A stretch of DNA of 64,000 nucleotides. It comes from Eledone cirrhosa (taxonomy: Eukaryota). Position 1 is the first letter of the stretch. Every line of letters begins with the position of its first letter. Positions 289 to 63,698 of this stretch are shown piece after piece. Location of the stretch: positions 37,758,001 through 37,822,000 of the forward strand of contig OZ024751.1 in assembly GCA_964016885.1 (NCBI GenBank). Reading direction: 5' to 3'. The notes beneath the pieces are model-generated. The model was not told the DNA's origin, did not search any database, and saw only the letters and a list, made by a program, of their open reading frames with translations. The translations under genes and the position numbers were made by a program.

Positions 289-484
289 ATAGGAACAAGT
301 AAGACCCCGACGGCTGAGCTCAAGCCGTTTCGACGGCTAATTCTGGACTGGGTTAGCCGTCGAAACGGCTTGAGCTCAGCCGTCGGGGGTCTTACTTGTT
401 CCTATTACCCACTCTACTACCCTAAGTATTGAGTACTTTGGTGCGTTATGGTCCACCTGGTTCCTTACCACATTTCCTTTGTTA
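289..484 (+). mobile_element. Family A fold-back element with 3' half of an HHR
   Basis: Inverted arms 289-340/353-405, then about 80-nt tail; (TA)n on both sides; GAAA(362-365)-cggcttgagctcagccg-TC(384). Confidence 0.85.
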
Positions 485-791
485 TATATATATATATATA
501 TATATATATATATGTATATATATATACTACAGCTGTCACTCGTAATCGAATGTACCTTGAGAGTATGCATCATGTTTCTTTAAGGGCTTTATTTGCCCAT
601 ACAGTCTGAAGTACTTATGGACATGACCTCCAAGATGCGGTCCTTGATTTTACGGAACATCCCGGTGTGATAGCTGAAAAGTGTGAGGTCTACACCAGCT
701 CTGAAGTCGTACGTTCTTTATTAATACAAAAACAATGAATGTTGTACTTAGAACGCAAAGAACTGAAACGAATACAGCAAAGTATTCTATC

Positions 792-960
792 CGACGTTTA
801 TGATGGTTGGATAACATCCATGAACTTGGTTGCGCATGGTTGGGGATCCAGCTGGATCAGTTGGCTACAGCTACTTCTGACAAGACCCGCTGGAAGGTGT
901 GTTTGAGGACTCAGCCCCCAATGCCCTCTCAGAAATAAGAGGGCGAAGAAAAAGAAAAAG
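792..960 (+). mobile_element. RTE-clade LINE 3' fragment
   Basis: Frame 804-938 reads WLDNIHELGCAWLGIQLDQLATATSDKTRWKVCLRTQPPMPSQK*, like the RTE ORF C-terminus (RW.D.I..L....LGI..........W...L...PP.P); in-frame stop at 801-803; A-rich tail. Confidence 0.65.
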
Positions 961-2470
961 GACTATAAAAATTACAGTAGACATTGTATATTGATATTTT
1001 TCTGTTCAATTTTCTGTAATATGTGGGGTTTTATCAGATATGAGCAAGCACTTTATCTAGTGGGGGTTTCGTTCACTGGGGACGTTTGTCCTGGTGTTTT
1101 CTCTACTCTCTCTCTCTCTCTCTCTCTCTCTCTCTTCTTTTTTGTATACCCATATTGACTTGCTTCATGTTAGCTCAATGACCTGTCTATCAAAAAAAAT
1201 CTTCTTTGCATTATACGGACAAATATTTTCCCTTCATGAAACTACTAGAAAGTGGAACATCAAATAAGACATGCTAACATATAAAATATGTCTGTGTTTA
1301 CATATCTATTTCTCAAAACTTCGTCTAAAACATGTACAGCTTTTCTACACAATACTTATTTGTATATCCATAAGTTTTCATTCATCTATCTATCTAGCTA
1401 TATATATATATATATATATATATATATATATATAGGTATGTGTGTGTAGAGAGAGAGAGATAGTGAGAGAGAGATACATAGATAGAGAGACAGATAGATA
1501 TGTTTTGTATGTGTTCTGGTAAGTATGTGTGTCTGAGAAAGAGGATGAGAGAAAGAGAGAGGGGAGGAACACTGGGTAAAAGAGACAGAGAGAGAGATAG
1601 AGTGAGTGGTTTCTGTGTATAAATGCCCCTATCGTCTATACATCTACCAAATTATCCCCTGTCTCTTCTCTTCTGTTTTTATGTCTTTCTCTGTCATCTC
1701 TTAACATTTCACATAAAACGAAAAATATTTTATTGAAACAGTATATGTCAATTTGTCAAATTACAAAGAAATCCAAGTGATTTGATTTGGTATTAGTCTT
1801 TATGGTTTTCTCTCTTGAAATATTCTTCCATTTGTTTAACTCCTGACTAAGTCTGATAGAAACAGCAGCAGACTATGGTGTAGATAATATTTGCAAGGTT
1901 ATGGATATTTCTTATGATTTCAAACAAGATTAGACAAAAATTGATTTCCTACATCAGAATAAATCTCCATATTTTATAGAGCTACTACATCTTACAATGA
2001 CTGCGGTCTTAATGTCCTCCAGCTAGCAAAACAAAGGAAAGCAAAAGAAATATAGTTTATAAAAGTGAATCCAAAGCGGGTATCTGAGTCATCGCAACGG
2101 GAGCTTTACAGCTTCACCATTGGGTTACCAAGGTTACTTTTCATACTGAATGATGGAAACATTTAAGAAACAATACAACACACACACACACGCCATCAAT
2201 GGAAGACAGGCAGGATGAGGAATTGATGTTGAGAAATCCAGTATATCGTTATGAACACGACAAACGTTTATCTAATACTTCGTAACTTCTCACATAAAGA
2301 CACGATTATATGTAATATTAATGATTTATATAAAATCATAGCACACACGAAATGACAAACACACACACAGATATTCACCCAGCCTCACACACACACACAC
2401 ACATATATATATATATATATATATATATATATATATATATATATATATATATATATATATATATATATAT

Positions 2471-2755
2471 CTAGGGCGGGCAAAATTCCCGAGATCCATA
2501 GACGAGTTCTCTCCAGCGGTCTCTGTCCCTCATTATGGCTGCCATCTCCTGCGTCTCCAAGAGACCAGTGTCTGTCTTTAGGACATCAACATACGTTAAC
2601 CTTGGTCTTCCTCTTCTAGTGTATCCATGCAGGGGCTCCCACAGGAGCATTGAGTGCAGTGTCAACTCTGGATGTCGGTGAGCATGTCCAGCTAACCTCA
2701 GTCTCCTCTGTGACACTTTTGAGCTGACTTTTGGGAGGCTCCTATACAGCTCTGA
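2471..2755 (-). mobile_element. RTE/RTE-X-like LINE ORF 3' end (truncated)
   Basis: ELYRSLPKVSSKVSQRRLRLAGHAHRH...LLWEP...RRGRPRLTYVD...DRDRWR is a typical LINE RT C-terminal region; 3' end abuts (TA)n. Confidence 0.85.
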
Positions 2756-2810
2756 TTCTGTGGACCGTCACTGCCTGATGAAGATCTTACAGGCTTATGG
2801 AATCACAGAT
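2754..2810 (+). mobile_element. Inverted LINE RT fragment
   Basis: DSVDRHCLMKILQAYGITD resembles the (AF)DSV.R..L.KIL.AYGIP motif of LINE RT, on the opposite strand to the adjacent 3' fragment. Confidence 0.65.
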
Positions 2811-2995
2811 AGTGGACCTGATACGCCAGCTCGGATTGCTCGATATCATCGACTGAGCTACTTTTTATTCAAGTCTGCTTCATATTTTTTTATCTCCCTC
2901 TGTCGACCGTGGTGTTACGGACATAACCACAGACACAAACGTAAACATACACACATACTCATACACATATTATATATATATATATATATATAATT

Positions 2996-3488
2996 ATAAG
3001 TTGAAAAAAATGAAAACGAAATTTCATTTCTCACTCTTAGTATGGCACTTACTTTTTTTCATTTTTTCAACTTATCGTTTTCGGTATGCCTGACCGATTT
3101 AACTCACTCAATATGCAAATTAGGCTGCTCAGCCGTTAATTTTCATAAGGAAAGTATATACTTTCGAACGTTCAACTATCTGGCAGATGGGTAAACGGTG
3201 CTGATGATAGCTAACAAGCTTGAAACTAGTACATCGTTCCTGTGTCAGTGTTGAACAAAAAGGTGACGTGGTTGCCTTAACACCGTATGGCATAAATTCA
3301 GGCTGTTCGATTTGTTGACAAACAAACGAACAAAGCAGGCGTTATAATAAACGTCGGCTAAACTGATGCGTGCATATATGTATGTGTACCTGTATGCATA
3401 TGTGTATATATATATATATATATATATGCATGCTACTGTACGTCTGTATACATATATGTATGTACGTATACATACATACTTACATTTA
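2996..3488 (+). mobile_element. Family F HHR element (relative of family E)
   Basis: Homologous to 63099-63564 and 55386-55669; short inversion 2996-3016/3056-3075; TA-rich flanks. Confidence 0.8.
3194..3238 (+). ncRNA. Type I minimal hammerhead ribozyme, family F
   Basis: aacggtg CTGATGA t-agct-aaca-agct-t GAAA ctag TA catcgtt; 7-bp stem I, ACUAGU palindromic stem III, GUA cleavage after 3231. Confidence 0.88.
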
Positions 3489-62107: not shown

Positions 62108-62300
62108 ATTATTTCTACTTTTGGCACAAGGTCAGCAATTTGAAAGTTAGGGGAAAATCGATTAAATCAATACCAGTGAGTAAATAGTAATTTATTATAT
62201 CTGCTCTATGGATGTATGGCAAACCTAACTTGGTAAAGAACCACAACTCTATGCCGCAAACTATGATGTCCGATGATCCACCGATACTGCCAATACATCA
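62108..62300 (-). mobile_element. Degenerate SINE
   Basis: attatttctacttttggcacaaggtcagcaattt is the reverse complement of the SINE 3' end. Confidence 0.65.
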
Positions 62301-62327
62301 CCGTTATGTAATAATTTAATATTAATA

Positions 62328-62688
62328 ATATATATATATATATATATATATATATAATATATATTATGTATTATATATATATATTATATATATATATATA
62401 TATTATATATATATATATATTATGTATTATATATATATATTATATATATATATATATTATATATATATATATATATTATATATATATATATATATATTAT
62501 ATATATATATATATATTATATATATATATATATATTATATATATATATATATATTATATATATATAATATATATATATATAATATATATATATTATATAT
62601 ATATATATTATTTATATATATTATATATATATATTATATATATATATTATATATATATATATTATATATATATATATATATTATATAT
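62328..62688. repeat. (TA)n/(TTA) microsatellite
   Basis: Direct reading. Confidence 0.95.
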
Positions 62689-62913
62689 AAACAATTAAGT
62701 TAAAAATGTACATCCACATATGTATACTGAAATACTAGTATGCATATGAATACACACACGTATACATATGTAGATGTACCGAGTTTTTCACTGGTCACTT
62801 TACTGTGAGTGTCCAGCTATTCTGTATGTAAACACACAGACAAACCGGTTTTTAGAGTCATACTGGTTTTTGAGGAAACACCTTTCCTCTATTCTCCAGA
62901 AAGCCAGACAAGG

Positions 62914-62958
62914 AATATTGGACTAGTTTCGATGTTGTTACATCTCATCAGCAATATT
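62914..62958 (-). ncRNA. Type I minimal hammerhead ribozyme, family E copy 1
   Basis: Reverse complement of 63233-63277. Confidence 0.92.
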
Positions 62959-63232
62959 TACCTATCTTCCGGCCTTTCTAGAGAATCGTAAAAGCACATA
63001 TCGTTATATGCTTTTTCTATGAAAATTAGTAGTGGGCAGACTAATTTGCATAGAGCGTGAGTACGTACCGGTTCAACGGTAAACACACAGACAAACCGGT
63101 TTTTATCGTCTCCGTTGAACCGGTACGTACTCACGCTCTATGCAAATTAGTCTGCCCACTACTAATTTTCATAGAAAAAGCATATAACGATATGTGCTTT
63201 TACGATTCTCTAGAAAGGCCGGAAGATAGGTA

Positions 63233-63277
63233 AATATTGCTGATGAGATGTAACAACATCGAAACTAGTCCAATATT
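63233..63277 (+). ncRNA. Type I minimal hammerhead ribozyme, family E copy 2
   Basis: aatattg CTGATGA gatgt-aaca-acatc GAAA ctag TC caatatt; fully canonical core, GUC cleavage after 63270. Confidence 0.93.
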
Positions 63278-63698
63278 CCTTGTCTGGCTTTCTGGAGAAT
63301 AGAGGAAAGGTGTTTCCTCAAAAACCAGTATGACTCTAAAAACCGGTTTGTCTGTGTGTTTACATACAGAATAGCTGGACACTCACAGTAAAGTGACCAG
63401 TGAAAAACTCGGTACATCTACATATGTATACGTGTGTGTATTCATATGCATACTAGTATTTCAGTATACATATGTGGATGTACATTTTTAACTTAATTGT
63501 TTAAGCGTCAGTCATACAAAAGTGAGTTACAAACGAAACGAAATTTAATTTCGTTTCGTTATTTGTTTTTATCGTCTCCGTTGAACCGGTACGTACTCAC
63601 GCTCTATGCAAATTAGTCTGCCCACTACTAATTTTCATAGAAAAAGCATATAACGATATGTGCTTTTACGATTCTCTAGAAAGGCCGGAAGATAGGTA

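Follow-up and report, generated by a model that had tools for sequence, protein, structure and literature searches.

Fixed outer ends of two-armed insertions of Penelope-like elements and retrozyme-like repeats at (TA)n tracts in Eledone cirrhosa

We analyzed a 64,000-nt stretch of the Eledone cirrhosa genome (assembly GCA_964016885.1, contig OZ024751.1, positions 37,758,001 to 37,822,000 of the forward strand), hereafter the window, which has a GC content of 31% in a TA-rich host genome of 3.0 Gb. The window carries head-to-head, two-armed insertions of six repeat families (A to F), which appear to be Penelope-like elements (PLEs) and retrozyme-like repeats, at (TA)n tracts. One arm ends at a fixed internal site, here called S1, and the opposite-strand arm at a second fixed site, S2, which is the end of a one-sided tail. 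The two ends are almost always used one of each, the arms break off independently at their 5' sides, and they derive from a common source template. We suggest that such insertions arise by twin target-primed reverse transcription (TPRT), in which both ends of a cut (TA)n target would prime cDNA synthesis at two fixed sites of one RNA, and we put the probability of this reading at roughly 0.75.

One of each end

Pairs of families A to D were counted in the window, in its two flanks and in a random sample of 950 kb, made up of 95 10-kb stretches that start at round coordinates. The sites were defined from the window copies with a tolerance of 14 nt, and 30 loci picked by palindrome likeness were left out of all end counts. 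Among the 73 head-to-head pairs, 57 were S1/S2, 2 were S1/S1 and none was S2/S2; 7 had an off-site end and 7 an unresolved one. Without the window 58 pairs remained (47 S1/S2, 2 S1/S1, no S2/S2 and 9 others), and 47 of the 49 random-sample pairs in which both ends were canonical had one of each (P = 2e-12 against a 50:50 expectation). An earlier note, made from the window sequence alone, had proposed two fixed outer ends with variable inner junctions; both hold genome-wide, and randomly placed outer ends, which the note had set down as the contrary outcome, are not what the counts show.

Long insertions of family A were traced from L078, a long copy in the random sample, by taking all loci behind the 40 best matches of a 396-nt internal query. 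This gave 29 young insertions, whose copies are 99.5-100% identical. Twenty-five of them are two-armed, and 8 of the 29 contain tandem units of 3,531 bp, the length of the intact parent unit of A. One two-armed copy, L254, was left out of the end and variant counts because one end lies outside the fetched stretch. All 48 outer ends of the other 24 adjoin TA runs; 23 of these copies are S1/S2, none has the same site twice, and one (L256) ends 14 nt past S1.

The rule extends to other families. The 15 two-armed loci of family E comprise 11 S1/S2 cases, 3 with S2 and an off-site end and 1 unresolved, again with no same-site pair. A search for the GIY-YIG endonuclease domain supplied 20 other loci bearing an open reading frame (ORF). 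The motifs CxxxxCxxC and CxxC..H..H of the Neptune clade were read in the translations of L132-L152 except L143, and loci are called Neptune-type here by these motifs. An inverted arm was not seen within the stretch fetched in 8 of the 20 loci; all 12 Neptune-type copies that have one carry the tail on exactly one arm, which in 2 of them is the shorter arm. A scan blind to family covered 820 segments between TA tracts, of which 110 have an inverted repeat touching a tract. A one-sided extension of 30-99 nt is present in 73 of these, and 10 look symmetric. Five of the latter were read and proved to be the two S1/S1 cases and three elements split by their own internal TA tract; two more sit inside the palindrome of L087. 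One of the S1/S1 cases forms the centre of a 5.4-kb inverted duplication (L087:51-5407, 93% identity), which is centred on a symmetric A fold-back, carries several other elements on both sides and was possibly formed by a hairpin-mediated event after insertion.

Three Illumina runs of restriction-site-associated DNA sequencing from one other study were aligned to the end of A. TA-ended loose ends were found at S1 in 2,925, 2,600 and 2,653 reads and at S2 in 7,398, 8,049 and 10,149 reads per run, and the depth falls from about 10,000 to fewer than 60 beyond S2. At least seven opposite-strand joints are present in the raw reads, most of which begin at one internal site of the element, which limits the coverage of junctions. 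Since both ends and opposite-strand joints occur in raw reads, the pattern is not an artefact of assembly; the earlier note had named palindromes missing from raw reads as a result that would speak against it, and all three runs contain them. Contigs assembled from short reads likewise show many different joints between tail arm and S1 arm (15 of 95 listed), although the main run may come from the assembly's own sample. That the palindromes are fold-back artefacts of assembly or library, or were made after insertion by hairpin repair, gains something from that last point and from the S1/S1 case at the centre of L087, where later palindrome formation may have occurred. However, the arms of old copies differ by 8-19%, and the ends are family-specific and asymmetric. 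Together with the reads of the independent study this refutes the idea for the general pattern, and we regard it as hardly credible. Other reads join S1 straight to S2 on opposite strands (20, 3 and 18 reads, with two or three starts; L251:5879 and 5959); these are tail-to-tail neighbours with almost no TA between them.

Independent arms from a common template

The lengths of the two arms are independent. In the 24 young A copies the S1 arm extends further 5' in 10 and the tail arm is the longer in 14; the lengths are uncorrelated (rho = -0.25, p = 0.24, n = 24), and the overlap between arms can be as long as 3 kb. The earlier note had spoken of an inverted arm and a sense arm; the layout stands, but the fixed roles do not, since genome-wide either arm can be the longer, ORF-bearing one. 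In 6 of the 24 copies (L078, L234, L237, L240, L246 and L248) the longer S1 arm is a single unit without a tail. There, neither of the two arms can have been copied from its partner, and simple fold-back is thus excluded for those copies.

It has been proposed for PLEs that inverted structures form by self-priming (PMC3846280) and that endonuclease-mediated resolution yields the tail (PMC8557442), as far as the parts of these papers available to us describe it. A single cDNA that folds back and primes itself, with one end trimmed or resolved at S1 by the endonuclease, would predict the shared private variants and the junction microhomology described below. It would suit the 14 copies with a longer tail arm and multi-unit copies such as L266, and short A copies are often near-symmetric around a centre at a breakpoint hot spot. 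However, a target-primed cDNA cannot give rise to a tail that is absent from itself, as would be needed for the six copies named above and for many short ones (in the window, those at 50175, 9800 and 2996). Fold-back is then left only as an extrachromosomal S2/S2 hairpin trimmed on one random arm, and S2/S2 was seen 0 times. We therefore consider it an unlikely origin of these insertions.

Sequence variants indicate that both arms come from the same source template. Within A loci the arms differ at 41 of 29,313 positions (0.0014), compared with 0.0031 between loci (0 of 1000 permutations), and in 8 of the 24 loci the two arms share a variant that the other 23 lack. Two haplotypes agree between the arms in all 19 informative loci, although these haplotypes may have been active at different times. 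In L247 a private variant occurs in the short arm and in the terminal unit, not in the upstream unit. The 14 E loci give the same relation (0.0072 within and 0.0189 between loci; 0 of 20,000). In the E locus L266, the variants of three S1-arm units match those of S2-arm units 4-6 in the same order, which argues for one multimeric template on which S1 was used three units upstream.

These data also bear on the possibility that twin priming takes place on two RNAs from one source locus, bound in a complex that is asymmetric in that one of its subunits starts at S1 every time and the other at S2. Long arm overlaps would then need no strand displacement, and shared variants would be expected if one locus were active per cell. 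One E-containing insertion (L263:198-5525) is a chimera in which a Hydra-type ORF arm stands head-to-head with an E array, followed by the apparent 3' end of another PLE endonuclease, all within an outer inverted pair; it suggests template switching between RNAs, and it shows that arms can differ in origin. On the other side, two RNAs would require an extra asymmetry to explain 57 S1/S2 pairs against 2 same-site pairs, and they leave it unexplained that some S2 arms come to an end at S1 (F at 2996-3054, B at 9803-9893, A in L072 and L230, C in L067 and L214). Moreover, no mixed haplotype was found in the 19 informative A loci or the 14 E loci. We judge this arrangement rather improbable, and prefer priming at both target ends on one RNA.

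The inner junctions vary. Among the 25 junctions of long A copies, 16 have a microhomology of 1-7 nt, 2 are blunt and 7 have inserted bases, some of them copied from nearby. The mean overlap of the 18 without insertion, taken from BLAST ends, is 2.67 nt, compared with 0.67 nt in simulations (0 of 20,000). The pair of breakpoints differs in all 25 copies. Breakpoints at the 5' side cluster in A, in that 7 arms of the 24 young copies end close to a C-rich run, at unit positions 2419-2467, and the majority of short copies end around position 3392 (about 3390-3400), in loop II of a hammerhead; these clusters are stall sites of the reverse transcriptase (RT). Many short A copies, in a subset picked by palindrome likeness and hence biased, are alike in centre and length, and A is very numerous (about 1e5 copies by extrapolation). 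One could suppose, then, that the short palindromes are units resembling miniature inverted-repeat transposable elements (MITEs) or short interspersed elements (SINEs) and move ready-made. This is contradicted by the different breakpoint pairs and locus-private arm variants of the long copies and by the fact that ORF-bearing copies, some of them several units long, have these ends too, and we think it very improbable. An ordinary MITE with symmetric terminal inverted repeats and a constant body was ruled out by the asymmetric ends and variable centres.

Both sites of A read TAT, matching the target. In one Neptune-type family (L132, L149 and L150) the element itself contains a (TA)n run exactly at S1, which gives the start site a long homology to the target. 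The arms of A run through the predicted ribozyme cut at unit position 3432, 20 nt before S1, which indicates that the template RNA was uncleaved. A motif, RCTC..GAGY-RC, opens 48 of 83 tails (shuffled sequences, mean 0.15 and maximum 3), although the 83 tails are copies of about seven families and are not independent. It folds as a bulged hairpin in most tails. In the A unit the motif occurs twice, 5-6 nt after S1 and 5-6 nt after S2, the second copy having been examined in A alone.

Twin priming and known systems

We propose the following sequence of events. The element protein, comprising RT and GIY-YIG endonuclease and presumably acting as two copies, would cut both strands of a (TA)n tract, and each 3' end of the target would pair with a short U-A run at S1 or S2 of the uncleaved RNA. 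In A each of these sites lies 5-6 nt ahead of a bulged hairpin, and such paired hairpins likely position the start sites. The RT at S1 would lead and the RT at S2 would trail, either stopping at S1 and leaving a tail-only arm or displacing the first cDNA. Each cDNA would break off at a point of its own, after which their 3' ends would be joined at a microhomology of 1-7 nt and the gaps filled in; the tail would correspond to the RNA between the two start sites. One-of-each pairing would be expected because a site in use on a single RNA is occupied, and a single RNA would also account for the tail-only arms.

Parts of this have precedents. PLE insertions with an inverted partial pseudo-long terminal repeat (pLTR) and a tail have been described (PMC3846280, PMC8557442 and PMC8969392), and they share with the present ones the head-to-head, 5'-truncated inverted copy, the one-ended tail and partial tandems. 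In the available parts of these papers the tail is optional and 30-40 bp long, and the structure is attributed to self-priming on an antisense template or to endonuclease-mediated resolution. Here, in contrast, the tail measures 36-100 nt, the ends are one of each, either arm can be the longer, and a single template has given rise to both arms, each truncated independently. The Poseidon PLE Poseidon_Ac cuts and extends both strands in vitro with unprocessed RNA and is predicted to be dimeric, and two internal RT start sites bound its tail (PMC11167929, from the part available). It thus shares with our insertions two start sites around the tail, the use of both strands, an uncleaved RNA template and an AT-rich target, but it belongs to a different clade, and its two sites have not, in that part of the paper, been tied to the two arms of inverted insertions. 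In the twin priming of L1 (Ostertag and Kazazian 2001, as cited in the available part of PMC12016303) both target strands likewise prime on one RNA and the opposite cDNAs are joined inside. That process is a minority event (18-22%) with a variable second start and a median overlap of 12 bp, whereas 25 of 29 long A copies are two-armed, both starts are fixed and the overlap reaches 3 kb; the insertions thus behave as in twin priming without following the L1 form.

Several observations weigh against priming at both ends on one RNA. Sixteen of the 73 A-D pairs are not clean S1/S2, including the two S1/S1 cases; 4 of the 29 long A insertions are single-armed, and L256 overshoots S1. For the shared variants there are other possible sources, either a pair of RNAs made by a single active locus or conversion of one arm by the other after insertion; the chimera in L263 means that the arms are not always from one template, and the three-unit offset in L266 also fits fold-back with termination at S1. 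An excess of near-symmetric junctions, which the model predicts where the trailing RT runs into the leading one, was not significant among the 24 young A copies (2 against 0.41 expected, P = 0.056). The hairpin motif was not found in 35 of the 83 tails, including all Neptune-type tails. Poseidon_Ac, as described in the part of PMC11167929 at hand, shows no homology between start site and target, unlike the TA homology seen here, and its start site is no different between the strands. The search for empty alleles in contigs of four runs found that contigs break at the TA tracts and that no piece spans an insertion; because of this, and because target duplications are unreadable inside (TA)n, the double cut is an inference.

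The pairing rule, the independent breakpoints and the private variants nevertheless narrow the mechanism to priming at both ends on one template, and they argue against the published self-priming where a defined class of copies is concerned. Tandem or inverted PLE insertion with a one-sided tail is a named open problem in the part of PMC8557442 available to us, and the available part of PMC11167929 leaves the later steps of integration unvalidated. Earlier papers already describe the layout, the tail, the targeting of (TA)n and the existence of two start sites, and the elements are of known kinds. What is new is the quantitative one-of-each rule; the pattern is general in this genome, where it covers retrozyme-like repeats and PLEs of two clades or more. 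Our literature searches, from which older key papers were outside scope, met with neither the pairing rule nor variants shared by the arms, nor with twin priming proposed for PLEs. Twin priming would explain the very abundant short palindromes in TA-rich animal genomes, for which A alone, extrapolated from 39 matches in 950 kb, accounts for about 1e5 copies here. The model is directly testable, since PLE integration can be studied in an existing in vitro system and this genome contains a Hydra-clade element that is young and intact.

A broader version holds that endonuclease-bearing (EN+) PLEs, and the retrozymes they carry, normally integrate by two-site twin priming, with two RTs that each take one end of a double-strand cut, one uncleaved and often multimeric RNA, hairpin-marked sites and a trailing RT that displaces the first cDNA. 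We see the chances for and against it as evenly balanced. If it were true, the inverted pLTR, the one-sided tail and the lack of second-strand priming by the target would be one phenomenon, and the integration of PLEs would be unlike the TPRT of long interspersed elements (LINEs).

Parent elements and copies in the window

Judged from its sequence, family A is an EN+ PLE of the Hydra clade. Its intact unit has a single ORF for a 717-aa RT/GIY-YIG protein with the motifs QFD, SMG, YRDDG and VIY..YIG..R. The Hydra features D117-K118-T119, C572/C574/C580 (the CxCX5C linker), C670/C673, E676, N689 and C698/H700 are present, these positions being 94-100% conserved in 109 aligned proteins, and CCHH is absent. 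At the RWK motif the ORF reads RWR, K being the majority residue (70%) among the aligned relatives. A Pfam search of the protein gave no family at E 0.01; the predicted fold has a predicted local distance difference test score of 93, and TERT was the best match in a fold search. Set beside the Hydra clade as described in the available part of PMC8557442, A agrees in DKT, CxCX5C, the CxxC/E/N/CxH residues, the lack of CCHH, the YRDD RT core and the C-terminal GIY-YIG, as well as in the tandem pLTR structure and the (TA)n target. It differs in its unit of 3.5 kb (generally less than 3 kb there), in RWR instead of RWK, in a hammerhead core UUGAGAA instead of CUGANGA, and in being intact and young in this genome. 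The likeness to Hydra-1_Obim, in the part of the supplement of that paper at hand, was judged by eye.

The PLE identity assumed by the earlier note was borne out for A, with its intact Hydra-type ORF, and for D, whose arms enclose such an ORF in L097 (35.5% identical to that of A); for B it is strongly indicated. The B end follows a Hydra-type ORF in L094, and an ORF is head-to-head with a B tail in L194. B and D may accordingly be regarded, on sequence grounds, as probable 3' ends of Hydra-clade PLEs. C is joined head-to-head to an ORF arm in L211, the own end of which is lost, and such a join does not prove parentage.

A descriptor scan detected type I hammerhead outlines with a canonical core in B and D and gave no match in C, E or F. 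In A the putative ribozyme has type I geometry and a variant core, UUGAGAA (U3/A8), found in two of the three A sequences scanned. A pattern for the canonical core ahead of A gave 11 heterogeneous matches, and Rfam gave no match to the A hammerhead. The A hammerhead lies at L251:5776-5860 (unit 3349-3440), has a long loop II and is also present in L107 and L097; another A subfamily reads UUGAAAA at the core, as judged by eye. A U3/A8 pair is able to replace C3/G8 in the hammerhead core; a literature search for this replacement found no paper.

E and F are non-coding tandem repeats with units of 466 and about 511 bp and, by their sequence, retrozyme-like. E matches Rfam HH9 with 38.9 bits, under the gathering score of 52. 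They resemble the non-LTR retrozymes of a preprint (bioRxiv 10.64898/2026.07.22.740005) in being non-coding tandem repeats with a candidate hammerhead-like core per unit. The E insertions have in addition the two-site, two-arm signature of PLEs, and the main text of the preprint, in the part available, has neither the word 'tail' nor 'priming'; the structure of these insertions provides direct structural support for the mobilisation of retrozymes by PLE machinery. Two E unit types alternate four times in L265:1558-6334, and a 2-nt deletion returns in mostly every third unit of the L262 array; such higher-order repeats could reflect the copying of dimeric or trimeric circular RNA.

The window copies were mapped by masked self-BLAST and arm mapping, which confirmed the shared asymmetry described earlier for A to E. 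Every copy named in the earlier note was found again, with palindromes 81-99% identical, one arm extended by the tail and (TA)n at both outer ends. The tail is about 79 nt long in A, 88 nt in B, 69 nt in C, 97 nt in D, 69-74 nt in E and 59 nt in F. The A copy at 289-484 (plus) has its S1 arm at 289-~349 (minus) and its S2 arm at ~353-484 (plus), with (TA)n on both sides; its palindrome (289-405, 91.5% identity) is followed by the 79-nt tail from S1 to S2 (406-484, plus), which sequence and motif scan show to open with a bulged hairpin, ACTC..GAGTAC, at ~411-436. On the minus strand, the copy at 32992-33191 has its tail at 32992-33070 and its palindrome at 33071-33191 (92.6%), and that at 56869-57066 has them at 56869-56947 and 56948-57066 (99.2%). 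Neither arm contains the other in the plus-strand copy at 50175-50339 (S1 arm 50175-50235, S2 arm 50239-50339). Two further plus-strand A copies are a two-armed one with short arms (40015-40177) and one that has, besides the tail, an S1 arm only about 10 nt long (45494-45594). An exception at 23733-23822 (minus) combines an S1 end with one that lies off-site, some 20 nt inside the tail, and single arms with an S1 end and no partner occur at 36455-36515 (A, minus), 49277-49337 (A, plus) and 54817-54992 (D, minus).

The two-armed B copy at 35942-36428 (minus) consists of a tail (35942-36029) and a palindrome (36030-36428, 81.4%), with a type I hammerhead core at 36328 (plus). The B copy at 9800-10078 (plus) and the F copy at 2996-3488 (plus) follow the same rule, as had been claimed, with one arm little more than the tail. 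In the former a tail-only S2 arm (9803-9893, minus) is joined to an S1 arm (9900-10078, plus; hammerhead core at 9978), and in the latter the S2 arm (2996-3054) is exactly the tail and is followed by the S1 arm (3056-3488); F, with its tandem unit, is related to E. Another B S1 arm (1-161, plus; core at 57) has its S2 partner to the left of the window (L062). The two-armed C copy at 36777-36966 (plus) has its palindrome at 36777-36897 (99.2%) and its tail at 36898-36966. In the two-armed D copy at 56082-56504 (minus) the tail (56082-56178) precedes the palindrome (56179-56504, 99.4%), with hammerhead cores at 56274 (minus) and 56409 (plus). The retrozyme-like E copy at 62688-64000 (plus) has an S1 arm at 62688-63079 (minus) and an S2 arm of two 466-bp units at 63099-64038 (plus), with a palindrome at 62688-63503 (98%) and HH9-like matches at 62898-62969, 63222-63293 and 63688-63759. 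The earlier note had given the (TA)n ending for A to D; in E too a TA array is present, at 64038, 38 nt past the window, and the unit is the 466-bp tandem.

Insertions can be nested in TA tracts. The central TA tract of an older palindrome (32716-32801 and 33197-33285, 94%) was apparently hit twice, by a fragment of a Neptune-type tail (about 32800-32940) and by the A insertion at 32992-33191. Old, diverged C and B copies with unclassifiable ends are found at 9504-9625, 48243-48343 and 27232-27445. Rfam microRNA matches across the window were rejected as simple-repeat or palindrome noise under the gathering scores. A LINE-like fragment at 2471-2940, presumably RTE-like, adjoins a TA tract and had 12 matches in the first random sample. 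A dispersed SINE-like family is represented at 9321-9515, 25991-26056, 27015-27200, 42142-42198, 43908-43988, 53051-53250 and 62038-62305. Finally, the window contains a 114-nt dispersed duplicate (55665-55778 and 57345-57456, 89%) and a 129-nt tandem repeat (8759-9013).

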